NCBI GenBank assembly: GCA_963769935.1
Contig: CAVYNY010000022.1
Coordinates: 128,001-192,000 of the forward strand
Reading direction: 5' to 3'
Length of the DNA: 64,000 bases
From: an uncultured delta proteobacterium
Lineage (GTDB): Bacteria > Desulfobacterota > Desulfobacteria > Desulfobacterales > JAFDCJ01
The notes under the pieces were generated by a model. The model saw nothing but the letters and a program-made list of their open reading frames with translations, had not been told where the DNA came from and made no database searches. Both the position numbers and the translations under genes were made by a program. Within the stretch, counting starts at the first letter, position 1. The number at the start of each line of letters is the position of its first letter. Below are positions 25,631 through 61,430 of the stretch, piece by piece.

Positions 25631-25632
25631 TT

Positions 25633-26035
25633 CGATTGCGGAATGCGGATTTCAGATTGCGGATTGACTTGGCATGGAGCAGAGGGCAGAGGATGAAAGG
25701 ATAAGAAGATCAGAAGATTAGAAGATCAGAGGATGGGAAGCGAGGAGAAGTTATTAGTTATTGTTTATTAGAAGAGAGGACAGAAGATAGAAGCTGGGAA
25801 GCATCTTCGTTTTTCAGCCTCAAGCCTCCCAGCTTTTTGCTATCAACCGGCACCTCAACGCCATAGCCTTTAACCTTATACCGTACACCTTAATCCCTAT
25901 ACCCTCTCCCTTCTTCCCTTTCCCTTTTGCCCTGCCCCGTGCGCCTAATGCCTTGCGCCAGTTAATGCATCCAGTATCGAGTATCCAGAATCCAGTATCG
26001 AGCATCCGGCCGCCGGGCTGACACCTGAAACTTTC
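25633..26035. repeat. Mosaic of degenerate 7-nt-periodic tandem repeats
   Basis: ttgcgga, agaagat, ttattag units on the left; ccagtat/cgagtat and pyrimidine-rich units on the right. Confidence 0.7.
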
Positions 26036-26040
26036 ATCTC

Positions 26041-29000
26041 TTATCTTTTATAATAGTCCTGCAAACACTTATAGTGGATGGGTTCACTGTTCTTCGCTTT
26101 CAGGCCCCGCACAATGGCTTCGGCCGCCGACAGGGTGGTAATGAACGGCACCCGGTTTTTAATCGCCGTCCAGCCGATGGTATATTCGTCTACCCGGGAT
26201 CGCAGACCCAGCGGCGTGTTGATAATCAGATGGATATGGCCGTTTTTAATTTCATCCACCACATTCGGCCGGCCCTCCCTGACTTTCAATACCGATTCGA
26301 CCGGAATTCCGCGGGCGGCAATATAGTCGGCCGTACCCTGGGTGGCCACCAGCTTGTAGCCGAATTTTCGCAATCCCTCGGCGATGGGCAGGGCCCGGGC
26401 TTTATCGTTGTCGTTGACGCTGATGAACACGGTTCCCGAGCGCGGTATGGTGACGCCGGCCGCCTGGAATGCCTTGAAAACAGCCTCGCCGAATTTGGGT
26501 GCAATTCCCATGACTTCTCCGGTCGAGCGCATTTCCGGACGCAGGAAAATATCGGTTTTGCTGAACCGGTCAAATGGGAAGACCGATTCTTTAACGGCCA
26601 CATAGGGAAGCTGATCTCTGAACCTGTATCCGATTTCATCGAGTTTCCTGCCGGCCATGACTTCAACCGCGAGTTTGGCAATCGGAATTCCGGTGGCTTT
26701 GCTGACAAACGGCACGGTGCGGGAGGCGCGTGGATTGACCTCCAGCACATACAGGGTATCAAACATGATGGCAAACTGAATGTTGATCAGGCCTTTGACC
26801 TTGAGGGCTCTGGCCAACTGGCCGGTATATTCCCGGATGTCATCATGTTGCTCACGGCTTAACAGAAACGGCGGCAGCACCGCCATGCTGTCGCCTGAAT
26901 GAACGCCGGCCTCTTCAATGTGCTGCATTACCCCGCAGATTTCGGTTCTCTCCCCGTCGCATATCGCGTCCACGTCAAATTCATAGGCGTCTTCCAGAAA
27001 ACGGTCCAGCAGCACCCGGTGTTCTTCGGAGGCCGTGACGGCATTCTGCATGTAGTGTTTCAGCGAATCGATATCATAGACAATTTCCATGGCCCGTCCG
27101 CCTAGAACATAGGAAGGCCTTACAACCAGCGGGAAGCCGATGCGTTTGCCGACCTCCAGCGCCTCATCGATGGAGGTTGCCGTACCGTACTGGGGGTGGG
27201 CGATGTCGAGGGAATCCAGCAGGGCGCCGAAACGATCCCGATCCTCGGCCAGGTCAATTGAATCCGGCGTGGTGCCCCATACCGGCACACCGGCCTTTTC
27301 AAGGGCCAGGGCCAGTTTCAGCGGGGTCTGGCCGCCGAATTGAATAATGACGCCGTCCGGCTTTTCCAGTTCGGTCACGTTCAAAACATCTTCATAGGTC
27401 AACGGTTCGAAATAGAGCTTATCGGCCACATCATAATCGGTGCTGACGGTCTCGGGATTGCAGTTGATCATAATGGCTTCGATACCGAGCGATTTCAAGG
27501 CCAGAATGCCGTGGACACAGCAGTAGTCAAACTCGATGCCCTGACCGATTCGATTGGGGCCCCCGCCCAGAATGACAACCTTCTTTTTGTCAGAAGATGT
27601 TGATTCGTTTTCATGGTCGTAGGTGGAGTAGTAATAGGGGGTAAACGATTCAAATTCGGCCGCGCAGGTGTCGACGATCTTATAGGAAGGCCGCACGCCG
27701 TTGGCCTTCCTGAAACTTCTGATTTCTCCCTCGCTTTTGCCGGTCAGCAGCGCCAGCTGCCGGTCGGAAAATCCCATGCGTTTGGCCCGGATTAGGGTTT
27801 GCTGGGCGAGGGTATTGCGTTTTTTATATTCGGCCGTGATTTCGTTTTCAAATTCAGTGAGTTGATGCAGATTTTCAAGAAACCAGATGTCGATTCCCGA
27901 AACCTGTGATATTTCATCCCGTGCAATACCCGACTTTAACGCCTGCCATATTTTCAGGATTCGATCCGGTGTGCCGTGTCGCAGATCATCCAGCAACGCA
28001 TCCCGGGACAACCCGGCATAGGCATTCGTATCAACGGCGTGAAATCCGGACCAGCCGTTTTCCAGCGATCGCAGGGTTTTGTTCAAAGCCTCCTTGAATG
28101 TCCGGCCGATGCCCATGGCTTCGCCGATGGATTTCATCTGGGAGGTGAGGCGGCGATCTTCATCCGGAAATTTTTCAAAGTCCCAGCGCGGAATTTTAAC
28201 AACGACATAATCAATGGCCGGTTCAAATGAGGCCGGCGTTTTGCGCGTGATATCGTTTGGGATTTCATGCAGGCGGTACCCCACCGCCAGTTTGGCGGCA
28301 ATTTTGGCGATAGGAAAGCCGGTGGCCTTCGACGCCAGGGCGGAGCTGCGGGAAACCCGCGGGTTCATCTCGATGACCACCATCTCACCGGTCTTCGGAT
28401 TCAACGCGAATTGAATGTTGGCCCCGCCGGTTTCGACTCCCACCTTGGCGACGATTTTTTTGGCGGCGTCGCGCATGTTCTGGTATTCAACGTCGGTCAG
28501 GGTCTGGGCGGGGGCGACCGTAATGCTGTCACCGGTGTGAATGCCCATGGGGTCGAAATTTTCAATGGAGCAGACGATCACAAAATTGTCGGCGCCGTCC
28601 CGCATGACTTCAAGCTCGTATTCTTTCCAGCCCAGCACCGACTGTTCGATTAATATCTCGCTGGCCGGGCTGGCCTTCAGACCCCATTGAGCGGCCTCGC
28701 TGAACTCTTCCCTGTTGTAGACGACGCTGCCTCCGATACCGCCCAGGGTAAAGGCGGGCCGGATGATCAGGGGAAAGCCGATCTCGCGGCACAGGGCTTC
28801 GGCCTCTTCCACGGTATGGACGCAGCCGCCTTCGGGCACATTCAAACCGATCTCCCGCATGGCGTTGCGGAAAAGCTCACGGTCTTCGGCCAACCGGATG
28901 GTTTCCAGGCCGGCCCCGATCAATTCAACCCCGTATTCTTCCAGGGTGCCGTTTTGGGCCAGCTCAACCGCCAGGTTCAGACTGGTCTGGCCGCCCAGGG

Positions 29001-29265
29001 TGGGCAGCAGCGCATCCGGACGCTCAATTTCTATGATGCGGGCCACCGCCTCGGCATTGAGCGGCTCGAGGTAGGTACGGTCCGAAAATTCGGGGTCCGT
29101 CATGATGGTTGCCGGATTGCTGTTAATCAGGATAACGATGAAGCCTTCTTCCTTGAGGGCTTTGCAGGCCTGGGTTCCCGAATAATCGAATTCGCAGGCC
29201 TGGCCGATGACAATCGGTCCGGACCCGATCACCAGGATTCTTTTGATGTCTTTTCGTTTAGGCAT
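26041..29265 (-). CDS. carB: Carbamoyl-phosphate synthase large subunit
   Basis: [24 protein letters not shown], two ATP-grasp halves, 1074 aa. Confidence 0.99.
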
Positions 29266-30364
29266 TGAACTCCTTCATGTCATTGACAAAATTTTCAAAA
29301 AGATAGCGGCTGTCGCGGGGACCGGGGGCGGACTCCGGATGATACTGAACCGAAAATGCCGGCAGGTTTTTGTGTCGGAACCCTTCAAGGGTCTGGTCGT
29401 TCAGGTTTATATGGGTGATTTCGACCTCGTTGGCGGGCAGGCTGTCGGCATCGACGATAAAGCCGTGGTTTTGGGAAGTGATTTCCACGGCGCCGGTGGG
29501 CAGGTACTTGACCGGATGATTGGCGCCGTGATGACCGAATTTCAGTTTGGTCGTTTTGGCCCCCAGGGCCAGGCCCAGGATTTGATGTCCCAGGCAGATG
29601 CCGAAGATGGGTTTCTTCCCCAGCAGGTTTCGTACCGTATTGACGGCATATGTCACCGGCTCCGGGTCGCCGGGACCGTTGGAAAGAAAGATGCCGTCGG
29701 GATTCCAGGCCAGTACGTCCGCGGCGGAGGCGTGAGCCGGAAATACCCGCAGCTTACAGCCGTGCTGATACAAGGCGCGCAGAATGGAAAATTTCACACC
29801 GAAATCATAGACCGCGACCCTGAAATTGAGCCGCTGATCACGCCTGGTTTCTTCGTCCATGGGCCACTCATAATTTTCTTCGGTGGTGACTTCCCGGGCG
29901 ATATCGCGCCCCACCAGCTGTTGGCCGGTTTTAAGTCTTTGCAGCAAAACTTCGAACGGCTCATCGGCGGTGGTTATCGTCCCCATCTGGGCCCCATGGT
30001 CGCGCAGATGGCGGGTCAGCTGCCGGGTGTCGATGTCGCTGATTCCGACTATGCCGTAATATTTTAAATATTCATCCAGCGACTTGGTCGCCTGCCAGTG
30101 GCTGACCACCGGGCTGTATTCGCGAATAATCAAGCCGGCCGCATATATGCGCCGGGATTCGAAATCTTTCGGGTTGACCCCATAGTTGCCGATCTGGGGA
30201 TACGTCATGGTCACCAGCTGGAAATGATAGGACGGGTCCGTGATAATTTCCTGGTAGCCCATCATGGCGGTGTTAAACACCACCTCGCCAACGCTGGTGC
30301 CCATAGCGCCCAGGGAAAGCCCTTCAAAGTGCGTGCCGTCGGACAGGATAAATCTTGCTTTCAT
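29258..30364 (-). CDS. carA: Carbamoyl-phosphate synthase small subunit
   Basis: GEVVFNT, SNGPGDP, GICLGHQ, QYHPE. Confidence 0.99.
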
Positions 30365-30391
30365 CTTTTATGTGCCTATAACTGTTTGAAT

Positions 30392-30600
30392 TGAATATTG
30401 AAATTGAAGATTGAATATTTGAGGTATTCTATCTTTTTAAGTATCGCCCTTAACATCTTTTCTCCTGCTCCTTGCGCCTTTAACCTTTTACCTTTATCCT
30501 TCCTTTTACGCTATGCGCTATGCGCTATGCTCCATGCGCTATGCACCTATCGCGCGCAACCCGCAACTCGTACCCGCACCTCGTAACCCGTGCCTCGCAA
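30392..30600. repeat. 7-nt-periodic repeat mosaic between argG and carA
   Basis: (cgctatg)n and cgcaacc/cgtaccc/cgtaacc units. Confidence 0.7.
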
Positions 30601-30606
30601 ACCGAT

Positions 30607-31872
30607 TTAGTCTCTTTTAAACTTGCTGTAATCCGGCTTGCGATAGCGACTTTCGCCGCCGCCGTCAATAGCTAAAAGGGATTCAACCTTCAGCGGCAGG
30701 CCGAACAGCTGGATGAATCCCTGGGCATCCTGCTGGTTGTACACATCTTCTTCGCCGAAGGAGGCATAGTCTTCGCGATACAGGCTGTAGGGGCTTCTGC
30801 GTCCGGCGATAATAATGTTGCCCTTGTAGAGCTTCAGACGCACGGTGCCGCTGACCGTTCGCTGGGTGACTTTGACGAACGCGTCCAGGGCTTCGTGCAA
30901 TTGCATAAACCACATGCCGTTGTAGACCAGTTCCGCGTATTTAACCGCCACAAAATCCTTATAGTGCATGGTGTGCTTGTCCAGGCAAATACTCTCAAGG
31001 GCCTGGTGAGCACGGAAAATTATCGTACCGGCCGGTGTTTCATAAACTCCCCGGCTTTTCATGCCCACCAGTCGGTTTTCAACAATATCCACGCGCCCGA
31101 TACCGTGGGCGCCGGCGATTTTATTTAAGCGGGTGAACATGTCCACCGCCGACAGTGTCTCACCGTTCAAACTGACCGGATTGCCTTTCTCAAAGCCGAT
31201 TTCGACATACTCGGGCTTATCCGGTGCATCTTCGGGGCTGACCGATAGCTTAAACATTGGAGCTTCCGGTTCATTCCAGGGGTCTTCCAGCATCCCGCCT
31301 TCATGGGACATGTGCATGATGTTGCGGTCACGGCTGTAAATATCCTTTTCGGTCTGGGTCAGCGGGATGTTGTATTTGTTGGCATATTTGATGGCATCTT
31401 CCCGGCTGCGGATCTCCCACTCACGCCAGGGAGCAATGACTCTGAGCTTCGGGTTGAGCGCCATCACGGTGAGCTCGAATCGGACCTGATCGTTGCCCTT
31501 TCCGGTGCAGCCATGGGCAACGGCATCCGCCCCTTCCTCTTCCGCGATTTCAACCATTTTTTTGGCGATCAGGGGGCGGGCAATGGAGGTGCCCAACAGG
31601 TATTCCCGTTCATACACCGCCCCGGCCTGCATGGTGGGAAACACATAGTCGGTTAAAAATTCCTCCCGCAGGTCGGCTACGATCAGCTTGGCGGCGCCGG
31701 ATGCCAGGGCCTTGTCCTCCAGGCCTTCCAGTTCTTCCTGCTGGCCCACATCGGCCGTAAAACAGATCACATCACAGTTATCGTAGTTGTTTTTCAGCCA
31801 GGGAACGATCACGGAGGTATCCAACCCGCCGCTGTAAGCCAGCACCACTTTTTTAACCTTGCCTTTGACCAT
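30607..31872 (-). CDS. argG: Argininosuccinate synthase
   Basis: [48 protein letters not shown] before ATG 31872. Confidence 0.98.
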
Positions 31873-31888
31873 CTTTTGCTCCTTTCCC

Positions 31889-31923
31889 AAAAAGAAAAAC
31901 CCCGGCAGGTGCCGGGGTTTTTT
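31889..31923 (-). terminator. Attenuator terminator hairpin in the argG leader
   Basis: mRNA aaaaaccccggc-acct-gccggggttttt followed by ctttttgg, just upstream of the argG RBS. Confidence 0.85.
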
Positions 31924-31948
31924 GTTTTCCATTCTGGTATTAACAGGT

Positions 31949-32038
31949 TCATATCCGATACAAAAAACACCCGGCCCTTGATCGGCTGCGACGGCGGCAA
32001 CGGCGACGGATACGGATGTTATTTGAAGAATGACTCAT
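31949..32038 (-). CDS. Arg-rich leader peptide [29 protein letters not shown] (putative attenuator peptide)
   Basis: Hand-translated, 29 aa, 10 Arg codons (9 within codons 9-21); sits between the promoter and the terminator upstream of argG. Confidence 0.8.
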
Positions 32039-32071
32039 TTTTCTAAGATATCCTGGTTGATGACTTCGGCG

Positions 32072-32100
32072 AATATGACAAAAAAATATCAGGCTGTCAA
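32072..32100 (-). promoter_or_regulatory. Sigma-70 promoter for the leader-argG-carA-carB operon
   Basis: TTGACA-N17-CATATT with an extended -10 TG. Confidence 0.7.
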
Positions 32101-32382: not shown

Positions 32383-32601
32383 TCAAGCAGCAATGGTTTG
32401 CTTTTCGGTAGGTAACTTGGTTAAAATTAGCTCTTTTAGATCCATTTTACTGGAGGCATTATCGATGTCGATACCAACCAGGTTATTTTCATCATCATAG
32501 TCGAGCACGACGCCTGGCGACACCTCTCTGCTTTCCGAACTCTCCTTGGCTGATAAATCAATATACATTGAATCTGTTTCTGGATAATATGATATTCTCA
32601 T
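32383..32601 (-). CDS. DUF2283 family protein (putative antitoxin)
   Basis: MRISYYPETDSMYIDL...EVSPGVVLDYDDENNLVGIDIDNAS. Confidence 0.88.
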   Translation of the reverse strand: MRISYYPETDSMYIDLSAKESSESREVSPGVVLDYDDENNLVGIDIDNASSKMDLKELILTKLPTEKQTIAA

Positions 32602-32753
32602 GGTTTAAATCCCCTATCTGGAAATGCATTATGGATGGTGATTTTGTCTTCCAGAGTAACGACACGAAGAAATCGACCATCAAGTTCTTCAATGGCAGCC
32701 CAGAACCTGTATCTATTATGCTCCTGTTTCTCAAACCTTATCGGGTTTTTTAC
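32598..32753 (-). pseudogene. 5'-truncated partner (putative toxin) of DUF2283
   Basis: VKNPIRFEKQEHNRYRFWAAIEELDGRFLRVVTLEDKITIHNAFPDRGFKP*, ATGA-coupled to DUF2283; in-frame stop shortly upstream. Confidence 0.6.
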
Positions 32754-32942
32754 GAATGGTTTCGTATCCAATTTCAATTTGACACTCTATACAAAATATG
32801 CAACATTATCAATGAATTAATCATATTGGCAAAAACCCTTTTGAGTTGGAATCCAACGGAGGGATAATGACCAGAATGAAAACCTCTGCTTGATGTATAT
32901 TATGCAGGGGTTTTTTTGTTTTCTTGATTGAGATAGATCAAA

Positions 32943-33602
32943 ATGAGCAATGGTAAAAGCGATCAGAACAATCATCCAATATTGGAACAACAGTCCTTTG
33001 ATAAGGCTCAAGGTCAGCTACGTCACATTTCCATTGAAGAATTGAAACAGATTCTTAGGGAACATATGAGATGGCTAAAGTCTAAGGGGAAAGAAGGAAA
33101 AAGGGCTGATTTACATTTATCAAATTTGAAAGCACTAAACCTTAAAAAGGCTATACTTGCATATGCCGAACTGACTCAGTCAGACCTTGTTGGAGCTAAC
33201 CTTCAACAGGCCAACCTTATAAGAACAAATCTGAAACAATCTAACCTATGCCAAGCTGATTTAGGAATGGCAAATCTTTCTAGAGCAAATATAGAAAGTG
33301 CCGAAATCATAGGAAGTATCTTCACAAATTCCAATCTTACCGAAACAAATTTAAAAAATAGTAGTTGCAGGGGTTCTGATTTTGATGGTGCCATCCTTGT
33401 TAAAGCCAACCTACAGGGTGCCGATCTTTTGTCAGCATTTTTTGAGGAAGCTGTTCTTAGAGATGCCAATCTTAAAGGAGCAAAAAATATAGCTATCGAA
33501 CAATTACAAGGAGCAAAAACTCTCTACCAAGCCAAATTAGACCCTGAACTTATGGAACAAGTGAAAAAGAGCTGTCCTTTCCTATTAAGAGAGTCGATAT
33601 AG
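32943..33602 (+). CDS. Pentapeptide repeat protein
   Basis: A(N/D)Lxx repeats after HMRWLKSKGKEGKRADL. Confidence 0.9.
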   Translation: MSNGKSDQNNHPILEQQSFDKAQGQLRHISIEELKQILREHMRWLKSKGKEGKRADLHLSNLKALNLKKAILAYAELTQSDLVGANLQQANLIRTNLKQSNLCQADLGMANLSRANIESAEIIGSIFTNSNLTETNLKNSSCRGSDFDGAILVKANLQGADLLSAFFEEAVLRDANLKGAKNIAIEQLQGAKTLYQAKLDPELMEQVKKSCPFLLRESI

Positions 33603-33718
33603 AAAGCAGAAAATACAAAACAAAGCATCCATTACATTGACGGGTGATGAAATTATCAATTATGTATTGGGAATCCTATGTATCCTATATCCCTTTGTTA
33701 CGTGAACAATAGGGGTTT

Positions 33719-33910
33719 TCATAGTTTTGATTTGAGTCGATAAATAGCTTTCGATGTTAGCACATGATTGCCTTCAATGATTTGCTGAATAGCTGGAGTC
33801 ACCCTGCCATACAAATCCATTAACTCTACCAGTAAAACAGTTTCAGAGATATCTTCCCACTTTTCGCTATCGTGACATTTACGCTCATACTGGTGCAGGT
33901 ATAACATCAT
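33719..33910 (-). CDS. Small hypothetical protein
   Basis: MMLYLHQYERK...WEDISE...VTPAIQQIIEG; start uncertain. Confidence 0.45.
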   Translation of the reverse strand: MMLYLHQYERKCHDSEKWEDISETVLLVELMDLYGRVTPAIQQIIEGNHVLTSKAIYRLKSKL

Positions 33911-35026
33911 ATCATTCAATCCGATCTCTGAGGAATTTCTATTATATATGTTGGTATGATTTTGATAATTGAGTGATAACAAATTTTCTTCCTTTTTTTT
34001 ATCTGAATAAATCAATCTTTTTGAATTCAATACCTGCTTTTTATTGGCTTTATAAGGGGAATCTTGAGTACATTATACAGCACGTTTCAGGTATCATAAT
34101 TATTATTGGGAAGATATTAATTGAATGAATAGAGATATAAAGAAATGACGTACCTATGCAGATATAATAATTGGTCTAATTAGAAGACAATTGTTAATCA
34201 CTACAGTACGCATTTAGTTTCTAATAATTTTTCAAAGGTCTTGTCTGGACAGTACTTCTGCCTTGCGGACTTGTTAATTTTGTTGAATTATTACGATGAA
34301 AACTTAAACCTTCATCAGTTATAAGGGTAAAATATTGCGAATTTATTTTTAAGATTTTAATCAAGTGATGATCTTTTAAATTAAGAATGACGTTCTCATC
34401 GGAATTCCTTTCTTTGAGATTCGACATGGGATAGTATGGATTTAATCTCAAAAACGTCAAGATAGCCATTCATATTTTATTTGCACTCATGCCAGTATTT
34501 TATTCAAAAGTTATCGGATAAAATTCTCATTATTCAATATTTTATAAAGTAGCGTATCTTAGCTGTCGTGGCCCACATTAGTTATCGGCAATATATAGGA
34601 TATCTTGAACGTATTTTATAGAGTTCATACGTAGTATCTTTTTAATTGAAATATTAAATGCAAAAAAAATGGGGATGATTGATTACATAATTTGTAACAA
34701 AAAATACACACCGTTTAAAATTCTTCTAATTTACTGGATGCATTTTTCCAAAACAGGAACCCGCTACTTAGATAGACCAAATTATTCCACACGCATATTC
34801 ACTTTTGGTATGGAAAATCACTTTCGGAATTTTTGATGGGTTCCGATATTCAGCAGGAAAAACGGAAATCGGTGTGGAGAATCATTTCAATATCGGGTGG
34901 TTCCACCCGAAGAATTCGATTGATTTAAGGTTTTGATTTAGATATTGGCTTGTGATATATTAGAAAGATCAAAGCCTGTATAATTGCCATCTCATAAATC
35001 AAGTTCCAAAGGATAACTGAATAACT

Positions 35027-35284
35027 ATGAAAAAGGAAATCAATAAACGTGAAGACCTGATTGGCAGGGAAATCATTTATAACAATAAATTAATCCTGAT
35101 CTCTGAAGCATGGGAGCGGACATACAAAAACCCCAATGTTAAAGATTGGCATGGTAAAATAATATATAGCCTTTCAGGTTATCATGATATTCAAAGGGGT
35201 AAAAAGGGTGAGAGCAAGGGGAAATATATCAAATTTGATGTTTTAAAAGAGAAAGTCGAATTTGCCTATAGAGAGACTCCGTAA
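35027..35284 (+). CDS. Hypothetical protein
   Basis: 85-aa ORF in AT-rich DNA. Confidence 0.45.
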   Translation: MKKEINKREDLIGREIIYNNKLILISEAWERTYKNPNVKDWHGKIIYSLSGYHDIQRGKKGESKGKYIKFDVLKEKVEFAYRETP

Positions 35285-35613
35285 AGAAGATCATCTGAAA
35301 AAAAAGACTCCGAAATGAAATCAAAATTAATCTATCATCAAATTTTCCATAGTTCTCATAATGGAATTTTAAATCTGAATTTTTAATAAGTTATTTAACT
35401 TTTGAACCGTCAATTGAGAGAATTCTGATTTTGGAATCAGAATTACAGTACTTCTACCTCATGTCATTGCAGTTCCTCATCCAACAGGTATGCTTCACCG
35501 GTATTTCAGATCAAGAAAACATTCAATTAAAACAGGATGCAGGGGGTGTAGAAAACTGAGATTCAGTTTGGTAATATTAAATATGGGGGTAAGATGAATT
35601 AGGAGTGAGAAAA

Positions 35614-35914
35614 ATGCCTATGGGAAAAGAACGAAGGGAATATGAACGGTTTCCATGCGAAACCCCAATTCTGCACGGAAAACTAGTCCCCCGATGATTT
35701 CTACAAAGGCACCATCTACAACTTCAGCAAAAGGGGATTATATTTCGAATCTGACGGAGATCTTTTAGAAGGGCATGAAGTATCAATATCAATTATTCCA
35801 CCAAAACATCAACTTACAGAGAAGTCCCATCAATATTTTGATGTCGAAATCATATGGTGCCAAAAACTATCAGGTTCATATTACCAAGTTGGCTACGGAG
35901 CAAGGTTAATCTAA
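35614..35914 (+). pseudogene. PilZ domain protein, frameshifted
   Basis: ERREYERF (RxxxR), then in another frame YNFSKRGLYFES (NxSxxG)...EIIWC...GYGARLI*; AGGAG RBS. Confidence 0.7.
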
Positions 35915-36078
35915 AAATACTTTGATATACTTTTCAGAGCAGGGCATATCCAAAATCAAGAAAACAATCACAGGAAACAGGGTAAAATCCAAAGAGCCGA
36001 TAAAGGGGTTTATGTCGGTGTGAAACAAGATTAGATCCAGACACTAACATTCCGGATATTCAATAGCGGGGATTTAAT

Positions 36079-36360
36079 ATGGCTCTGACCAAAATCCAAA
36101 TTGTCAATTCAATTGCCGATCAGATAGGCTATACCAAGAATCAAGCATCAGAAATGGTTGAAACTATCCTTGAGATCATTAAAAAAGCCCTTGAATCCGG
36201 TGAAAATGTCATGATCAGCAGCTTTGGCAAATTCTGTGTCAAGGAAAAGAGGGCAAGAAGGGGGAGGAATCCTGCAACAGGTGAGGAAATGATGCTGAGA
36301 CCAAGGAAGGTTGTCAACTTCAGGTGGTCGGGTATTCGTCGCCTCCGGTCCACCTTCTAA
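36079..36360 (+). CDS. IHF-alpha/HU family DNA-binding protein with aberrant C-terminus
   Basis: MALTK...ISSFGKF...RRGRNPATGE...RKVVNF, then diverges. Confidence 0.8.
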   Translation: MALTKIQIVNSIADQIGYTKNQASEMVETILEIIKKALESGENVMISSFGKFCVKEKRARRGRNPATGEEMMLRPRKVVNFRWSGIRRLRSTF

Positions 36361-51360: not shown

Positions 51361-52509
51361 TTAATTATGATGCTGTGTATAACAGGAGGCGATAAGCTCC
51401 TTCAGTACTTCATACACTCTGACAAGACTTTTCAAACTTACCCATTCATCTACCGCGTGAGCCCCGTGGCCGATGGGGCCGTATAAAATAGAGGGTATGC
51501 CCGCCTGCGCGGCCAGCGCCGAATCCGCCCAGAAGGATAGTCCCACCGTTGCGGAGCGGGGTGAAGCCTTTTGTAAACGCTCTAAAATCCAGGCATCATC
51601 TGCTACGCTGAGCGGCCGCCTTACAAAATTCTCCCGCGCCTTTGCCTCATGCCGGCCGGGGTGATTCTTGACGGCTTGAAGGACCCGTTCCATTTCAAGG
51701 TTGAGATCCTGTTGCGATTCTCCCGGAAGGGTGCGCCGCTCCCACAGCAGGCGTGAATGGCTGGCAATAACACTCAGCTCGGTGCCGCCTTCGATGATAC
51801 TGACGTGCAGGCTGGCATAACCCAGCAAAGGATCGGGTTCGCGCGCATTCAGATCATGCTGGATCCTGTCCAGCTCTTCCAACGCAGAACGCAACGGCAA
51901 AATGGCATCGATGCCTTCCTCGGGGCGGCTGCCATGGGCGGCTTTGCCGTTTACTTCCAATTCATACCAATTGAAACCTTTGTGCTTTACCCCGATCTCT
52001 TCCTCGGTCGGTTCCAGAAAGATCGCGCCCAAAGGACGCGGTGAGACTGCCGAAAGCCATTTGTCGACCAGCCACTCCATTCCCGCACTTTTGTCTTCTT
52101 CATCGGCCACGAAGGTCAGATATACATCCAGGGGAGGCCGATGACGGATGAAGAAACCGGCCAGCAACAGCATGACGGCAATGCTGCCCTTCATATCATA
52201 GGTGCCGCGGCCGTAGAGTCTATCCTTTTCCTGCCGCAGCGTGAAGGGATCCGTCATGCCTTCGACACCGACGGTGTCAAGATGGCTGTTGAACAAGAGG
52301 GAGTTTCTTTGATTGGTTCCCGGTATACGGGCGATCACATTGGTTCGGCCGGGGACTATGGTCTGGATGTCGGTTTCGAGGTTCAAGCGCTGCAAATAGT
52401 GGAGGACAAATTTTGCAAGCTCCTCTTCACCGGGACCGCCTGAAAGAGTTGAATTGATGGAATTTATCCGAACCAGCCGGCTTAAAAGTGAGATCAATTG
52501 TTTTTCCAA
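51361..52509 (-). CDS. M20 family (ArgE/DapE-like) deacylase
   Basis: NSHLDTV, GRGTYDMKG, ADEE, GKAAHGS, GAHAVDE. Confidence 0.9.
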   Translation of the reverse strand: MEKQLISLLSRLVRINSINSTLSGGPGEEELAKFVLHYLQRLNLETDIQTIVPGRTNVIARIPGTNQRNSLLFNSHLDTVGVEGMTDPFTLRQEKDRLYGRGTYDMKGSIAVMLLLAGFFIRHRPPLDVYLTFVADEEDKSAGMEWLVDKWLSAVSPRPLGAIFLEPTEEEIGVKHKGFNWYELEVNGKAAHGSRPEEGIDAILPLRSALEELDRIQHDLNAREPDPLLGYASLHVSIIEGGTELSVIASHSRLLWERRTLPGESQQDLNLEMERVLQAVKNHPGRHEAKARENFVRRPLSVADDAWILERLQKASPRSATVGLSFWADSALAAQAGIPSILYGPIGHGAHAVDEWVSLKSLVRVYEVLKELIASCYTQHHN

Positions 52510-52623
52510 TGGATGTCGTCTCCTGGTGCGGATGGATTTTTGAGCTTACTTTTTGCAGAAGGATATTATATAGAGATTGAGACGATGTCAATCATAGGGG
52601 TTCAGAGGACAGAATGACAGATT

Positions 52624-53010
52624 ATGCCGGTAAAGATAGATAGTTTGCAGGTGCACACCGATGCAAGGGGGGTGGTCTTTGAACCGCTGGCGGCCGAAAG
52701 GATCGCAACGCAACGCAACGCCCATGTCGTCATCAGCCGGCCCGGAGTTGTTCGCGGCAACCACTGCCACCTGCAGGGAACTGAAACAATCGCTGTGGCG
52801 GGGCCGGCTCTGGTTCGAATCAGGGAGGACGGGAAATTGCGCGACATCGAGGTTCCCGATCAAAAAGTCTATCGGTTCATCTTTCCACCCCAGGTGTCCC
52901 ATGCAATTAAAAATACCGCTGATCGGCCGAATTTTCTGGTTGCCTTTAACACCTGCGCGCATGATCCGCAACATCCGGATACGATTCCTGATATACTGAT
53001 AAAAAGTTAA
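52624..53010 (+). CDS. Cupin protein (WxcM/CapF C-terminal-like)
   Basis: HTDARG...PGVVRGNHCH...E...HAIKN. Confidence 0.75.
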   Translation: MPVKIDSLQVHTDARGVVFEPLAAERIATQRNAHVVISRPGVVRGNHCHLQGTETIAVAGPALVRIREDGKLRDIEVPDQKVYRFIFPPQVSHAIKNTADRPNFLVAFNTCAHDPQHPDTIPDILIKS

Positions 53011-53505
53011 TCTAAGGCCGGCTGCCGATTGTGGGATCCTGTCTGTATTATTGCATCCAACATCTATGTTTAAAAAAGTGAAACTGGATGACTAACCTAC
53101 AGTTCCGTTTTTGAATAAAAAGCACCAAATAACAAATGACAAACAATATCCAAATTTCAAGCTCCGATGGCCCAAACAGATTGTGCCTTACAGCCAAGTG
53201 GTACCTCCGGTTTGAACACAGGCAGCGTGATGCATATCAGAGACAGTCGAATCGACTTGATTCACGGAAAGCTAATAGTTATTTCGAAATTGTTATTTTT
53301 TTAGATTTCCATGGGGCGCCTGGTACCCACCCGGCTGCAACAGGCACGGAACTGGAGCGGATAAAAATAGAAAAGAATTATTAAGTTTAGATAATTAATA
53401 CCGATAATACAAATTGACGGAAAAAATTGATCACACAAGCGTCGAAAAATGAGAGGCACCGAAAGCCGGTCAGGTAATTTTTTTTAAGGAGACCCATCGG
53501 ATAGC

Positions 53506-56448
53506 ATGCAACTGACACCATTTGACATCACCTATCGTTCTGCTGAGAAATTTTTTCAGGATTACCTCCAGCTCAAGGAGGGCAAGCTGTTTGTGCAGGC
53601 CGAAAATCCCGTGCCGAAAGATTCGCCGGTGGCCCTCAATTTTTTGGTGCCCCGCATCGATTATACCTTTCAACTGAACGGAATCGTATTGAAAACCCGC
53701 GGCCGCAAAATTGCGGAGCAGGTGGATAAACACCCGGGCATGCTGGTTGGTGTAAAAGATGATCTGGAAAAAATATTTGATAAATTAGACTTGAAACTGT
53801 TGGCCGACGAAAAATACCAGTTCCTGCTGGCACTTTGTGATACGTTGAAAGATTCCTGCTCCATCATCGCCTACGACAGCATCGATGAAGAGGCTGGGTC
53901 AAAGGAAGAGACCCCGTCGGACTCGGCATCAGAGCCGAACCCGGAATTGCCCACAACGGATCAAGGCGGGCCGAATTCGCGCACGCCGGCCGCAGTTGAA
54001 GCGCCAGCAGGAGGGCAATTGCAGTCTGAAGGTCTTGGGCAGGAAACTGAAAACAACTTTCCCCCTAAGACGACCGGGGCTGCCGCCGATGAGAAATCAG
54101 CAGCCGCGCTGGAGAAGCCGCCTGAACCCGATTCCGAACAAAAGCGCGCTGCGCTCCAATCGGATGAAACGTCCGGTGAAGAAGCATCCCAACTGAGCTT
54201 TGACTGGCTGCGTGAGGCCATTGCCCAGGAAGAGGCGGTCATTGAGGAAGCACCGCCGCCGGAGATCCAGGCTCCGCCGACCCAGGATAAAAAAAACCTC
54301 AGCCCGGAGGAGCGCGCTAAAGTAAAGCCGGTTGCAGAATTCATTATGGATCTGACAAAAGCCATGCTGCGCTCCGGCTATTATTCGCACGAACATCCCG
54401 GATCCCAGAAAGCCAAAAAGGGACTCTATGCGCAGTTTATAAAGAGCCTGGGGAAATCCTCGGAAATAATGATCACCAACGTGGAAACTCCCCAGAAAAA
54501 AGATATTTTAATCACGGGTATTCTGGATGAGCCGGTCAGCGTACGCACCCTGGTGGGAGCCGGCATGGCGGAGCTGTTTGTTCCCAAATTGACCGAGTTT
54601 TTTAACCGCAAGGGGTTGCTCAGCTTTGCCATCAAGAAGCAAATCACCGCCGCCCATTTCGAAAAGTACATCGACATTATGAGCGATCCCAGGGCGGATC
54701 ACGGCCGAAGCAAGAAAATGGGCGAGCTTTTATCCCGGGCCTTGGCGAAAAATGGAATTACGGAAATTTCCACCATTTTTATGGACGATATCATCGTTCT
54801 GGAGAAAAATCTGCCCTGGCGCGTTGAAATGGCCATCCAGCGACTGACGAAGGACTTAAAAATCCTGCCGATGTTTAAAAGTAAATCGGATGAAGCCATT
54901 CTCAACCTGAAGGTAAAAATCATCCATGACATCATCCGACCTTTGAAATATGGTGCCTACCTCAAAGAACTCCTGGTTAATTGCTATATTATAGCGCAGC
55001 ATGTTGATAATATAGAGTCTGAGGAAATAGAAGGGGTGATCATCGAGGGGATGCCGCCGAATTTGCTGCTGCCTACCGCGCACCACGTATTTGAAGATCT
55101 CAAGGACCTCAATAAATTAAAAGCTAAGGAAAAACCGAGTGCGGTCCTGCAGCGGCGGCATGAGGGGGTCAAACGCATCATTAAAACCTTGTCGCGCAGA
55201 CTGATTCAGCTGAAAGTAAAAGGCGCGCAAAGCTTTCTGGAGGGGCTGCACAACAGCAACGTATTGGCTTTCAACGAGCTGCCGTCCGATGTGCAATACC
55301 TGGTCAATACCATGAAAATAGTGCGCGATGTGAAGGCGCGTCTCAATATTTACATTAATTGGGTATTCCAGCGGTTGACCCCCATAGATGCAATCGTCAT
55401 GTTGAAATGCTTCCGCCGGGTGATACCGATCGTTCTTGAAGAACAGAATTGGATGGTGGCCTTCAAAATCACCCTGGCGGTCAACAAGGTCAAAAACGAA
55501 ACGGATCTGTATTCACCCAAAAATAACCTGCCGGCCAACCCGTTTTATTTTATATTCAAAGATGGGTCCGACATGTTATCCAACGCATACTTGACGGTAT
55601 CGACCACTTCACGCTTGGAGATTGATCAAATCGTTCGCCGGTTGGGCAGCAAGGGTCTGGATATTTTAAATCTGATTCTCATAAAAAGTGAAAATTCCGA
55701 TGTGCGGACCGATGCGATGGAGACCGTTGTGAGTATGGGTGAAAAAGCGCGCCTCTGGAGTTTAAATGTCCTCCATAAAAACGGCCAGGATGTCGGAACT
55801 CTGAAGAACGCGTTGGCGATTATGCGGGAGGTGGGCAAAGCAAATGCGGATACCGGATTGGTCAAAAAATATGCCGACCATGCCGATCCTCAGGTTCAGG
55901 AAGAATCCCTGCACACCCTCATCAGTTTCAATGCCGAGGATCTGGAATCGGTTATCATAAAGGCCTTGACCAATCCGGATGACAAACTGCGCTGGCGTGC
56001 GCTTACCGCTCTCGGTAAATTGAACAGTCTATCCCAGGAGGCGATCGCCCAGATCCTGCAGATCATAACTTCCGATCCCCCGGATGATGACCAGCAGACG
56101 TCAGCCCACTGCCGCAAAATTGCCCAACTGATTCAAGCACTAGGGGCTTTAGATAACTTTCCGGCTCTGGACCACCTCGAGGAAGCGATTCTCAAAGTCG
56201 TTCAGAAATCGGTTGACTCCGGCAAGGGACTGATCACCCGTTTGAAGCTGCAATACCCCACCCCAGATCAAACCACCATTCTGATCGCCGCCTTCGCTAC
56301 GCTCGGTAAAATTGGATCTGCGAAGTCCAACGATCAATTAGCGAAATTGGCCAAGGGCAAATCGGCCATCGCCCTCGAAGCTCAGAAGGCCATTAAACTA
56401 ATCGCGGCGCGCCATACGAGAACTGCAGCGGCTGGGGCTGCGCACTGA
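53506..56448 (+). CDS. Large protein: N-terminal PilZ-like domain, acidic linker, C-terminal HEAT repeats
   Basis: N-terminal GKLFV...PGMLV; low-complexity E/P/A linker; DPQVQEES and DDKLRWRALTALG HEAT-like repeats. Confidence 0.7.
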   Translation: MQLTPFDITYRSAEKFFQDYLQLKEGKLFVQAENPVPKDSPVALNFLVPRIDYTFQLNGIVLKTRGRKIAEQVDKHPGMLVGVKDDLEKIFDKLDLKLLADEKYQFLLALCDTLKDSCSIIAYDSIDEEAGSKEETPSDSASEPNPELPTTDQGGPNSRTPAAVEAPAGGQLQSEGLGQETENNFPPKTTGAAADEKSAAALEKPPEPDSEQKRAALQSDETSGEEASQLSFDWLREAIAQEEAVIEEAPPPEIQAPPTQDKKNLSPEERAKVKPVAEFIMDLTKAMLRSGYYSHEHPGSQKAKKGLYAQFIKSLGKSSEIMITNVETPQKKDILITGILDEPVSVRTLVGAGMAELFVPKLTEFFNRKGLLSFAIKKQITAAHFEKYIDIMSDPRADHGRSKKMGELLSRALAKNGITEISTIFMDDIIVLEKNLPWRVEMAIQRLTKDLKILPMFKSKSDEAILNLKVKIIHDIIRPLKYGAYLKELLVNCYIIAQHVDNIESEEIEGVIIEGMPPNLLLPTAHHVFEDLKDLNKLKAKEKPSAVLQRRHEGVKRIIKTLSRRLIQLKVKGAQSFLEGLHNSNVLAFNELPSDVQYLVNTMKIVRDVKARLNIYINWVFQRLTPIDAIVMLKCFRRVIPIVLEEQNWMVAFKITLAVNKVKNETDLYSPKNNLPANPFYFIFKDGSDMLSNAYLTVSTTSRLEIDQIVRRLGSKGLDILNLILIKSENSDVRTDAMETVVSMGEKARLWSLNVLHKNGQDVGTLKNALAIMREVGKANADTGLVKKYADHADPQVQEESLHTLISFNAEDLESVIIKALTNPDDKLRWRALTALGKLNSLSQEAIAQILQIITSDPPDDDQQTSAHCRKIAQLIQALGALDNFPALDHLEEAILKVVQKSVDSGKGLITRLKLQYPTPDQTTILIAAFATLGKIGSAKSNDQLAKLAKGKSAIALEAQKAIKLIAARHTRTAAAGAAH

Positions 56449-56551
56449 TGTGCTTAGGGCTCACTCAAAAATAATTTCACTATTATAGTATCGTAAAAAA
56501 TTCCCCGGGTATTCTGCAATATTCATCTGCTTTCCGGCCAGGCGGCCGGTG

Positions 56552-56782
56552 TCAATTTTTATTGAAAGCAGCCGCTGACGGACCGCAATTGGTACACATT
56601 CCGGGTCCCGCTGCAGCCGGGAAACCGCCGGCATAGTCGTGAGATGCGCCGACTGAAAAACTTGACATCAGTTTTTTCACTTTGCCCTGACAGAGCGGAC
56701 ATTTTACCTGGGAATTATGGGAAGCGACCAGGAGGTCAAATTTATAGTCGCAGTGTTCACAGTTATATTCGTATAAAGGCAT
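56552..56782 (-). CDS. FmdB family zinc-ribbon protein
   Basis: MPLYEYNCEHC...CPLC...KKLMSSF. Confidence 0.88.
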   Translation of the reverse strand: MPLYEYNCEHCDYKFDLLVASHNSQVKCPLCQGKVKKLMSSFSVGASHDYAGGFPAAAGPGMCTNCGPSAAAFNKN

Positions 56783-56850
56783 GACCTTTTCTCCTATCTC
56801 GTACCAGAAATATTATTTTGGGCTTTTGATTGTGCCGTAATCGGCTGGGA

Positions 56851-57051
56851 TTATAAATTAGAATTTAAGATCTCATGCGTCCGTATGCAAGGGGTGTATT
56901 CGGCTGCATCAAAGGTGGACCCGATCGGATCCGGAAAAGAAAATTTCAGATTTCTCTCGGCCAGAAGCTTGCCCAGTTGGACGGCCGCACCGGCGTAGGC
57001 CGAATTTCGACCCGCCCTGGAACCGCAAAATAAGCAGATGCTTTTTTGCAT
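56851..57051 (-). pseudogene. Truncated LOG family (TIGR00730) gene
   Basis: SICLFCGSRAG...YAGAAVQLGKLLAERN, then loses homology before the YGG motif. Confidence 0.7.
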
Positions 57052-57084
57052 TTTTCAGAATGCCTCAAGCCATTTTATCAGTTT

Positions 57085-57834
57085 TCAGCCCAGTGCCGTA
57101 TCGCCGGCATCCACCAGGATCGTCTGTCCCGTGGTGGATTTCGCATCGGCTGCCAGATAAACGGCCGCGGCCGCTACATCTTCACGGTCTATTGTCTTTC
57201 CAAGGCGGGTGGGTTTTTGCAAATCCTGCAGGACTTCCGGCGCCCAGTTGACGAAGCCGGTGTCAACAAACCCCGGTGCGATGGCATTCACCCTGATTTC
57301 CGGCGCCAGCGCCCGGGCCAGGGCCTTGGTAATGCTGGAGAGCGCTGATTTGGCGGCGACATAAATCAGGGAGCTGCCGCGCGCCGTATATGCGGCAACG
57401 GAAGTGGTATTTATAATCGAGGCATCGCCGGTGGCTTTTAAATGCGGAACTGCGGCCCGGATGCAGTAAATAGGGCCTTTTACAATCACGCGCCAGGTAT
57501 TTTCCAGTACCTCCTCACTCAGAAGCTCCAATTCGTGATGCGGAATGAAACGGGTCCAACCGGCGTTGTTGATCAGCAGGTCAAGCCGACCCATGCGCTC
57601 CACCGACTGGGCGATCAATTGCCGGGCCTGCCGGTCATTGGCAACGTCGGCCCGGAGCGCCCAGGCGCGGCCCCCGGCCTCTTCGATCCGGCTGACAACT
57701 TCGTGAGCCTGCTTCTTTGATTTGCTGTAGTTGACCACCACGGCCGCACCTTCGCGGGCGAAGCGCAAGCACATCGCCCGGCCGATTCCGGTGCCGCCGC
57801 CGGTCACCACCACCGCTTTATCTTTGAATTTCAT
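57085..57834 (-). CDS. SDR family oxidoreductase
   Basis: TGGGTGIG, NNAG, YVAAK, RVNAIAPG. Confidence 0.93.
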   Translation of the reverse strand: MKFKDKAVVVTGGGTGIGRAMCLRFAREGAAVVVNYSKSKKQAHEVVSRIEEAGGRAWALRADVANDRQARQLIAQSVERMGRLDLLINNAGWTRFIPHHELELLSEEVLENTWRVIVKGPIYCIRAAVPHLKATGDASIINTTSVAAYTARGSSLIYVAAKSALSSITKALARALAPEIRVNAIAPGFVDTGFVNWAPEVLQDLQKPTRLGKTIDREDVAAAAVYLAADAKSTTGQTILVDAGDTALG

Positions 57835-57901
57835 TAGACCTCCTATTTACCCAACGCGGCAGCAACTGTTTAACGCTGAATGTGCAATTAATCAGGGCGG
57901 A

Positions 57902-58684
57902 TTAATTAGATTGTATGACGGTTCCGGAGCTGAATCGCCGACCGACCATATTCGACAGCGTATCCGGCCCCTGCCACTGGATGATATGAACCCGCGGTAC
58001 ATTATTGGCCAGCGCTTCGAAAGCGGATTCCATTTTGGCTACCATGCCGCCTTTGATGGTGCCGTCTGCGATCAGGGCCTGCGCCTGCTCAACAGTGAGG
58101 GCCGGCCGGATCTGCTCCCGGACCAAAACACCGGGGACATCCGTTATAAAAACCAGATCGGTGCAACGGGCCGCCGCGGCAAGGGCCGCGGCGGCGCTAT
58201 CGGCATTGACATTGTAGCTGGCCCCGTTTTCATCGGTGGAGATGGGGGAGATGATCGGCACCATTCCTGCTTTTAAAGCTTCCAGTACGATCCCGGGATT
58301 GACCTGCTTGATTTGGCCCACGTATCCCCAATTCAGCCCGCCGCGGGTTAACGGTTCGACAAGAAAAAGGTTTTCAGTTCTGCCCGACATCCTTTGGCAG
58401 GCAATGCCGTTGGCACTAATCCAGGCTGCAATCCGTTGGTTGATGGTTCCGGAGAGGACCTCCTCGACGATTTTTATATCTTCCGCCTGCGTCAGCCGGA
58501 TGCCGTCGATAAATTGGGTTTGCCGTCCGGCATCCTTAAGCGCCTGCGAGATTTCAGCACCGCCGCCATGCACGATGATAAGCTCCAGGTTCCGACTGGA
58601 TTTTACGGCCGTTGCCAGTTCTTTAAACCCCTGTTCTCCTTCAAACGCCCGGCCGCCGATTTTAACTAGGAGTCTTGAAGTCAT
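57902..58684 (-). CDS. argB: Acetylglutamate kinase
   Basis: VKIGG, VHGGG, YNVNAD, TDVPGV, IKGGMVAK. Confidence 0.93.
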   Translation of the reverse strand: MTSRLLVKIGGRAFEGEQGFKELATAVKSSRNLELIIVHGGGAEISQALKDAGRQTQFIDGIRLTQAEDIKIVEEVLSGTINQRIAAWISANGIACQRMSGRTENLFLVEPLTRGGLNWGYVGQIKQVNPGIVLEALKAGMVPIISPISTDENGASYNVNADSAAAALAAAARCTDLVFITDVPGVLVREQIRPALTVEQAQALIADGTIKGGMVAKMESAFEALANNVPRVHIIQWQGPDTLSNMVGRRFSSGTVIQSN

Positions 58685-58903
58685 TATTTATTCACACCAA
58701 TTTATGTTTTCTATAAAATAGACAGCCGTGTATTAACATTTTAGTTGTCTGTTGTTGATTAGGAGCTAGAAAAATCTATTATCCAATACACTAAGGGATG
58801 AAATCGCTGGCCTCTTAGTGAATCCTGCGACTGGCAACCTGCAGCAACCTGCAACTAACCACCTACAACCAACAACACACGCCATTGCACGTAAGCGCAA
58901 TGG

Positions 58904-60670: not shown

Positions 60671-60816
60671 TAAATATTCCTTATAATGATCCTGCTGAGA
60701 TTTAGAAATTTAATTTATGACAGAAAAAAAATCTGCAATCAAGGAGAAACCTTACATGAAGCAGGCCTTGTGATTTAAACTCTCAATAGAATGAATTCGC
60801 AAAAATTGCAGACTAA

Positions 60817-60972
60817 GGGCTCACTCAAAAATAACTTCACATTTTATACGCCGATGCATCTCATGCGGCTGCGTTGCGAAAGCTCGGAATATCCAGATAT
60901 TCCTGCGTTTTCGCGCCTTGCCGCAAGAGCGCCTCAACGCTTAAAACTGTGAATTAATTTTTTCGTGAACCC
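60817..60972. mobile_element. MITE, 156 bp, with imperfect terminal inverted repeats and flanking TAA duplication
   Basis: taa|gggctcactcaaaaataacttcac...gtgaattaattttttcgtgaaccc|taa; solo ends at 56457-56480 and 24392-24416. Confidence 0.75.
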
Positions 60973-60988
60973 TAAGTGAAGGCTATGT

Positions 60989-61205
60989 AAATTCCAAGCA
61001 CCAAAACTCAAATAACAAACAAATTCCAATGACCGAAATTCAAAATTTCAAACAACAGATCTTTCCACCGATTCGCCAAACGGCACTATCACCGGCAGTT
61101 AATGGTTTGTGAAGCGATGCGCTCCACCTACACTGAACGTTTTGTTCATTGAGTATTGGAATTTGCGATTTATTTGTAATTTGGTACTTGAGATTTGGGA
61201 TTTCA
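60989..61205. repeat. Imperfect long inverted repeat built from AT-rich 7-mers
   Basis: aaattccaagcaccaaa...caaataa...tccaat versus attgga...ttatttg...tttggtacttg...ggattt; related tract at about 53118-53310. Confidence 0.6.
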
Positions 61206-61305
61206 TTTATCTATAGAACCTTCTGACGCAACTGGATTCAAAATTACCTTAACGGTACCCCACTTATATACACAAAGAGCACAACATACTGTGGTTATTC
61301 CGTGC

Positions 61306-61334
61306 TTGACACACAAAAATTAATTTGCCATAGT
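61306..61334 (+). promoter_or_regulatory. Sigma-70 promoter for pyrB
   Basis: TTGACA-N17-CATAGT. Confidence 0.55.
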
Positions 61335-61430
61335 CCCCTGTCAACAAAGAAATTCATCTTTTACACCCGATCCGGGCAAGCCGGAATTGAAGATTGAAAA
61401 TGGCGAATTGAATTTTTTCAGGAGAAAAAA

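Follow-up and report, generated by a model that had tools for sequence, protein, structure and literature searches.

Organization of the argG leader region

The window analyzed here, a 64,000-nucleotide stretch of DNA from an uncultured Desulfobacterales bacterium, carries the genes argG, carA and carB on its minus strand, preceded by a leader with the appearance of an attenuator. The features of this region are given below in mRNA order.

32072..32100, minus strand: sigma-70-type promoter, TTGACA-17-CATATT with a TG extension, matching 10/12 consensus positions
32051..32054, minus strand: weak Shine-Dalgarno-like AGGA, 12 nt 5' of the uORF ATG
31949..32038, minus strand: leader uORF (proposed name argL), 29 codons including 10 Arg; ATG, Arg run and stop are in-frame and conserved (alignment A1)
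32013..32020, minus strand: segment 1, anti-antiterminator and predicted pause strand; partner 31973-31966 (8 pairs)
31988..32014, minus strand: control codons 9-17, with seven Arg, every one CGU or CGC
31960..31978, minus strand: segment 2, predicted antiterminator arm; partner 31925-31907; nearly duplicates the terminator 3' arm
31889..31923, minus strand: predicted intrinsic terminator (3:4), comprising an A tract, CCCCGGC, the loop ACCT, GCCGGGG and a U tract
31884-31879, minus strand: argG ribosome-binding site, with the argG ATG at 31872
30607..31872, minus strand: argG, argininosuccinate synthase of Chloroflexota type (NCBIfam and trees)
29258..30364, minus strand: carA, carbamoyl-phosphate synthase small subunit (NCBIfam)
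26041..29265, minus strand: carB, carbamoyl-phosphate synthase large subunit (NCBIfam)

A preliminary description of this DNA had placed a promoter, a uORF with 10 Arg codons, a pairing segment (31975-31962) and a terminator before the argG ribosome-binding site. All were found at those minus-strand places, and NCBIfam returned the same names for the downstream genes argG-carA-carB. Transcription would start near 32065. The Arg residues of the uORF occupy codons 9, 11, 12, 13, 15, 16, 17, 19, 21 and 28. The terminator stem consists of 12 bp (31922-31895), with the U tract at 31899-31889; the 16 nt between the U tract and argG are too short for a further promoter. A promoter-like site is present within argG (31145-31118). 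An alternative, longer argG start (ATG 31932) was rejected, given that it would translate the terminator and that relatives begin at the equivalent of 31872.

Single matches to the promoter and terminator consensus were not above those in shuffled sequence (5 versus 2.6 and 3 versus 2.9, respectively), so the case for the element rests on conservation. Seven Arg codons in nine were observed in 10 of 33,042 short ATG frames (20-40 aa) genome-wide, and the argG leader was the sole Arg-rich uORF among 207 terminator-like sites preceding genes (sites not de-duplicated). No second copy of the leader element was found in the genome.

Two further features of the surrounding DNA were observed. Upstream of the promoter, 32383-36360 is A+T-rich, contains DUF2283, pentapeptide-repeat and HU/IHF-like genes and is perhaps an inserted island. 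The intergenic tracts 30365-30606 and 25631-26040 contain short tandem repeats of a 7-base type, and the intergenic DNA of relatives is alike.

Conservation of the leader in Desulfobacterales

ArgG was present in 56 of 61 related genomes, and the best 30 of these 56 were used for comparison of loci. Sixteen of the 30 belong to the same genus; upstream DNA is lacking for two of them. In each of the remaining 14 the full leader is present: a promoter, a uORF rich in Arg and 28-29 codons long, the antiterminator arm and the terminator. The full leader was also present at a locus from a different family (L019). It was found in 0/10 loci with the native argG of the order (54-58% identical), a gene often preceded by what we take to be an argF-like gene, and was not found at L020, where argG is 68% identical. 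Among the best 80 named loci, Desulfobacterales-type metagenome-assembled genomes (82-90%) were followed by Chloroflexota, mostly Anaerolineae (65-80%), and then by other phyla, an order that places the window in Desulfobacterales. When identical leaders were counted once, 24 distinct leaders of Desulfobacterales type were obtained. The leader was missing from three distinct loci whose argG is 80% or more identical (L018, L064 and L070) and from all 35 distant-phylum loci (L076-L110).

Of the 24 leaders, 22 have a TTGACA-type promoter ~30 nt 5' of the uORF. Among 23 leaders examined for it, 17 have a weak purine motif within 24 nt of the uORF ATG, usually at 7-14 nt. In alignment A1, the ATG is conserved, and indels in the uORF almost always have a length of 3 or 6 nt. 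Among Desulfobacterales, the leader peptides repeatedly show the pattern RIRxRRR and a tail of GC/GG-hydrophobic type; beyond Arg the peptide is variable, and it gave no Pfam or NCBIfam match.

An RNA model (R1) built from the 24 distinct leaders was applied to 150 genomes of the order and gave 17 matches, 13 strong (6 training sequences and 7 new) and 4 weak. The weak matches were bare terminators. All 7 new strong matches have an in-frame Arg-rich uORF; 6 lie directly before argG and 1 at a contig end. In 149 phylum-wide genomes, the single match was to a bare terminator only. Taken across the phylum, the R1 results indicate that the element has a patchy distribution and is linked to this type of argG.

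RNA helices and the effect of ribosome position

The terminator helix (3:4) is nearly invariant in A1, where 10 consensus pairs were observed with 98.8% of cells paired and one pair with 7 compensatory changes. A helix absent from the preliminary description, 1:2 (32020-32013 with 31973-31966), has 77.6% of cells paired and two-sided changes at 3/8 pairs; it is frequently weaker than 2:3 at equilibrium, and with its predicted pairing the leader would have all three helices of the classical arrangement (1:2, 2:3 and 3:4). Pairing in the 2:3 helix stands at 84%, and covariation of this helix within A1 was not above that of shuffles (79/500) because the helix core is invariant. The preliminary description had looked to Arg-rich uORFs and covarying helices upstream of argG orthologues: the uORFs were found, and compensatory changes were found in 3:4 and 1:2, with 2:3 remaining at the level of shuffles. 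In summary, the promoter, the uORF, its Arg run, the three helices predicted to be mutually exclusive and the terminator are all conserved.

The 24 leaders were folded with the ribosome at successive positions, in one set with all sequence on its 5' side masked and in another with a footprint of -17/+12. Helices 2:3 and 3:4 are mutually exclusive in these folds, and 2:3 is free with a ribosome on the control codons. In the first set, a masked fold of the kind that the preliminary description had suggested, the antiterminator could form while the ribosome stood on the Arg run and was lost directly past the run, in 24/24 leaders. In the second set, the antiterminator of the window gained -15.4 kcal/mol with a ribosome on the Arg run. 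The gain was -1.0 over codons 19-28 and -7.4 with the ribosome at the stop codon, and in a ribosome-free leader it was -9.6; the corresponding medians for the 24 leaders were -8.8, -2.4, -3.6 and -4.3 kcal/mol. The gain over the Arg run was 5 kcal/mol or less in 5/24 leaders. At equilibrium, the terminator outcompetes the antiterminator in 24/24 leaders (+3.3 kcal/mol for the window, median +10), so control must be kinetic, that is, by kinetic trapping.

The preliminary description had further proposed that a ribosome reaching the stop codon would cover the antiterminator segment. This held for the U-rich half of the arm, but not for the GCCGGG core, which lies 24-19 nt before the stop; full cover is predicted with the ribosome at codons 19-28. 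With the -17/+12 footprint, a strict on-at-Arg, off-at-stop pattern was obtained for 4/24 Desulfobacterales and 18/38 Chloroflexota leaders (described below), given that the 2:3 core re-forms behind a stop-bound ribosome in a folding model that represents neither kinetics nor the bulk of the ribosome inside that loop. In one natural variant suited to probing the predicted leak at the stop, the uORF of L074 has an early stop, giving 24 codons and placing the stop over segment 2.

The specificity of segment 2 for its own terminator was also analyzed. Cognate pairing at z ≤ -2 was observed for 10/24 Desulfobacterales and 14/38 Chloroflexota leaders, against 3.7% of 2,844 dissimilar pairs. An initial swap test, in which the target arm was short, gave a weak result: the cognate arm beat every other-phylum arm in 6/24 and 13/38 leaders.

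Control codons, tRNA genes and regulators

Control-zone codons were defined as Arg codons at which a stalled ribosome leaves segment 2 free. The 24 leaders, which are kin and so do not give independent counts, contain 62 CGU, 47 CGC, 9 CGA, 5 CGG, 3 AGG and 0 AGA in this zone. CGU and CGC thus make up 87% of control-zone Arg codons, versus 42% genome-wide (CGU 10.5% and CGC 31.8% of Arg codons) and 40% in ribosomal-protein genes. The equivalent counts for 38 Chloroflexota leaders, subject to the same kinship, are CGU 58, CGC 32, CGA 23, AGG 14, CGG 5 and AGA 4. The genome encodes one tRNA-Arg(ACG) and separate tRNA-Arg genes with anticodons TCG, CCG, CCT and TCT. According to the part of PMC1183508 that treats the selective-charging rule, control codons are those read by the isoacceptor most sensitive to starvation. 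The CGU/CGC bias fits this rule, with the proviso that tRNA gene copy number does not equate to tRNA level. In the same genome, tadA is divergent from, and adjoins, its substrate gene tRNA-Arg(ACG) (G000:C8:14317-14946).

The preliminary description had raised the question of whether the genome encodes ArgR. No ArgR was found in the genome itself (96.7% complete) or in any of 61 relatives (0/61); among 151 Anaerolineae-class genomes, ArgR scored over the cut-off in four, strongly in one. The T-box model (RF00230) gave no match. An Rfam scan gave 47 weak matches, none of which reached the gathering score, and the Leu, Phe, His and Thr leader families scored 16-25 bits against gathering scores of 49-55.

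Related leaders in Chloroflexota

A codon-blind script was applied to 108 Chloroflexota loci, consisting of 18 named loci and 90 from the 131 argG-positive members of a class sample of 151 genomes. Four loci were too short, leaving 104; for L055, L059 and L063 the search windows were placed by hand before an intervening gene. A terminator was found in 57 of the 104, and a promoter and ATG as well in 41. With the uORF taken, irrespective of its codons, as starting at the first ATG past the -10 box, triplets beginning with CG numbered 129 in frame and 55 and 65 in the two other frames, and Arg accounted for 21.5% of 689 residues. The frame bias persists despite variable distances from the ATG to the Arg run. 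Many of these uORFs begin 6-10 nt past the -10 box and, judged by this spacing, are likely leaderless. Their peptides are unrelated to those of Desulfobacterales.

For the codon counts and folding, 6 rows in which the uORF call was wrong or absent were dropped and 3 rows were added, giving a set of 38. Helix sequences differ among Chloroflexota subfamilies and from the Desulfobacterales leaders. Approximately one-third of the Chloroflexota rows had no preference of segment 2 for their own terminator, and these may use other structures. When R1 was applied to 66 other loci, Chloroflexota leaders were matched weakly (best L044, E 7e-5), which implies that they constitute separate RNA subfamilies.

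Origin of argG and linkage to carAB

In quick phylogenetic trees with a midpoint root, the ArgG proteins of leader-bearing Desulfobacterales nest within Chloroflexota ArgG with SH-aLRT values of 98-99, apart from the native Desulfobacterales clade. Forced grouping of the two Desulfobacterales ArgG sets was rejected by an AU test on 31 rows (p = 3.6e-5, the group having been chosen after the first tree). L044, the best Chloroflexota match to R1, belongs to the sister group of the leader-bearing Desulfobacterales ArgG. Given this nesting, transfer would have been from Anaerolineae, and it is likely from these sequences that argG and its leader arrived together by horizontal transfer. The remaining arg genes are scattered in the genome. 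argH lies in a cluster (G000:C3:93714-100235) that we take to be of hslVU-argD-argH-dapF-like composition, without argF-argG, and this arrangement is consistent with loss of the native argG. Within the window, 51385-62513 contains argE-like, argB, argS and carbamoyltransferase genes, at a distance of 20-30 kb from argG; several of these lie within 8 kb upstream of the leader in relatives.

One tblastn match each was obtained for carA and carB in the genome. The only copy therefore lies behind the leader, so that carAB is not an arginine-specific isoenzyme. Of the 24 leaders, 23 have carA at most 1.7 kb after argG, and for the remaining one the contig stops short; some of the gaps are of ~5-15 nt. 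carA was not seen in the fetched Chloroflexota loci, many of which have short flanks, and the argG-carAB link was seen only in Desulfobacterales loci. argG is probably co-transcribed with carAB. Contigs from four metatranscriptome runs (one study, from a strain differing by a few percent) cover argG and carA, and one spans 31772-31982; such contigs reveal neither transcript ends nor strand nor level, DNA may have contributed to them, and the thin cover of the leader carries no meaning.

Proposed mechanism and alternatives

We consider it probable, at roughly four in five, that the leader is a trp/his-type ribosome-mediated transcription attenuator that would read the supply of charged Arg-tRNA and thereby set transcription of argG and, probably, of carA-carB. 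The suggestion of Arg-tRNA-sensing attenuation in the preliminary description gains support from the conserved in-frame Arg run, the CGU/CGC bias, the predicted switch boundary directly after the run and the lack of a detectable ArgR. When Arg-tRNA(ICG) is scarce, a ribosome would wait on the CGU/CGC run at codons 9-17 and cover segment 1. Segment 2 would be left free to form the 18-bp 2:3 helix ahead of the synthesis of strand 4, and RNA polymerase would continue. When arginine is plentiful, the ribosome would be over segment 2 (codons 19-28) during synthesis of strands 3 and 4, and termination would take place at the U tract. On a leader free of ribosomes, 1:2 and 3:4 would form. Arrival at, or release from, the stop codon would allow some read-through; such basal read-through is predicted because the core of segment 2 lies shortly before the stop codon. 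A basal read-through of 10-15% results from release at the stop in the trp attenuator, as stated in the relevant part of PMC1183508, and by analogy the leak at this leader is presumably similar. A basal leak would suit an operon with the only carbamoyl-phosphate synthase of the cell.

It is improbable that the uORF and terminator instead form a unit with a fixed or growth-rate-dependent leak, sensing general translation speed through slow Arg codons rather than arginine. The terminator is dominant at equilibrium, the sole carAB needs steady expression, and the part of PMC4046918 that deals with the Salmonella his leader reports CGU and CGA to be slow depending on context, all of which would suit such a unit. 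However, CGU-CGU is fast in the same account, the codons chosen are the abundant CGU and CGC with the rare or slow AGA, AGG and CGG avoided, and argG lies downstream in every case with flanking sequence.

Less probable again is a nascent-peptide stall of the SpeFL or fungal arginine attenuator peptide kind, in which a small molecule (ornithine, citrulline or arginine) would drive the same RNA switch. Leader peptides that contain Arg and are affected by a ligand are known from the portions of PMC6386406 and PMC11550727 concerned with them, and a peptide signal might be read into the recurrent RIRxRRR motif and tail of the Desulfobacterales leaders. Against this, the variability of the peptide outside Arg and its lack of relationship in Chloroflexota leave no conserved arrest sequence to be found, the codons conserved in the tail make up the antiterminator arm of the RNA, and the synonymous bias indicates tRNA supply. 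Least probable, and very unlikely indeed, is that the CGY repeats bind an arginine-responsive RNA-binding protein or RNA by TRAP-like logic with an incidental reading frame: triplet repeats beside an antiterminator do recall the protein-controlled attenuators described in part of PMC6524683, and the uORF Shine-Dalgarno is weak, but the in-frame conservation of the ATG, the indels of 3 or 6 nt and the codon-blind frame bias despite variable spacing argue against it.

Relation to known systems

The classical attenuators trpL, hisL, thrL, leuL, ilvL/ivbL and pheL, as covered in part of PMC1183508, share with the proposed Arg-tRNA attenuator a uORF with clustered, codon-biased cognate codons, the 2:3 and 3:4 helices together with a candidate 1:2 helix, an intrinsic terminator and biosynthetic genes thereafter; the basal read-through predicted from release at the stop codon is shared with trp. 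Unlike in those systems, the cognate amino acid here is arginine, the hosts are Desulfobacterales and Anaerolineae, and the only carAB lies behind the leader.

Four other systems share individual features, as far as the sections of the cited sources that treat them extend. The Salmonella speF leader, orf34/SpeFL, has a uORF containing Arg codons, and the speed at which it is translated affects expression downstream (PMC6386406), but there are two such codons, ornithine decarboxylase is controlled via Rho, access to the ribosome-binding site and RNase G, and an intrinsic-terminator switch for arginine synthesis is not part of that account. The rbfL leader peptide of Staphylococcus aureus senses arginine limitation by its Arg codons (PMC13009471); these are the rare AGA and AGG, and starvation represses a biofilm regulator by occlusion of the ribosome-binding site, so that both sign and mechanism are opposite. 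In the fungal arginine attenuator peptide (CPA1/arg-2), an arginine-dependent uORF controls the carbamoyl-phosphate synthase small subunit (PMC11550727), but high arginine stalls the ribosome through the nascent peptide and blocks scanning, with no RNA switch. The Pseudomonas carAB leader (PMC4997734) and the beta-proteobacterial carA motif (PMC8632094) involve attenuation before carAB, with a leader peptide in P. aeruginosa; they differ in being pyrimidine-responsive, with arginine control by ArgR, and the sections concerned describe no Arg-codon run.

No description of a leader-peptide attenuator for arginine biosynthesis was found in the literature covered; the supplement of PMC11109978 and subscription attenuator surveys lie outside this scope and may matter. 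Three further articles (PMC2965389, PMC11109978 and PMC6429828) mention neither arginine nor argG in their main text, and one supplement of PMC8632094 gave no match for the terms searched. From its sequence and modeled folding, the leader is likely a classical leader-peptide attenuator on all testable features, new in its amino acid and belonging to no Rfam leader family. With only slightly better than even confidence, we propose a fuller account: that this is an undescribed, cross-phylum arginine attenuation in ArgR-less lineages, that a self-regulating cassette of leader and argG from Anaerolineae displaced the native argG and captured the only carAB, and that the position of the stop leaves a leak for pyrimidine synthesis.

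Arginine synthesis is the textbook case of repressor control, not attenuation. A classical Arg attenuator would extend the list of attenuator amino acids, explain control of the pathway in phyla without ArgR and offer a natural test of selective isoacceptor charging (CGU/CGC versus CGG/AGR). The leader would also be an example of a cis-regulator moving between phyla together with its gene, and its 230 nt would supply an arginine biosensor testable in E. coli. How pyrimidine supply is maintained with the sole carAB behind an arginine switch is a puzzle.

Other observations in the genome

ARAGORN calls both tRNA-Pyl(CTA) and tRNA-SeC in the genome; dual code expansion is reported for marine Deltaproteobacteria (PMC8318568). 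Two further candidate leaders were observed. One, at L236:1976-2141 (G000:C7, minus strand), is an Ile/Leu/Val-rich leader of 33 codons with a terminator, in the classical ilv attenuator layout; the gene after it resembles what we take to be acetolactate synthase. The other, at L237:1616-1990 (G000:C8), is Phe-rich and has two GC hairpins with U tracts; it precedes a gene that is presumably for a DAHP synthase, with a second DAHP-synthase-like gene divergent.
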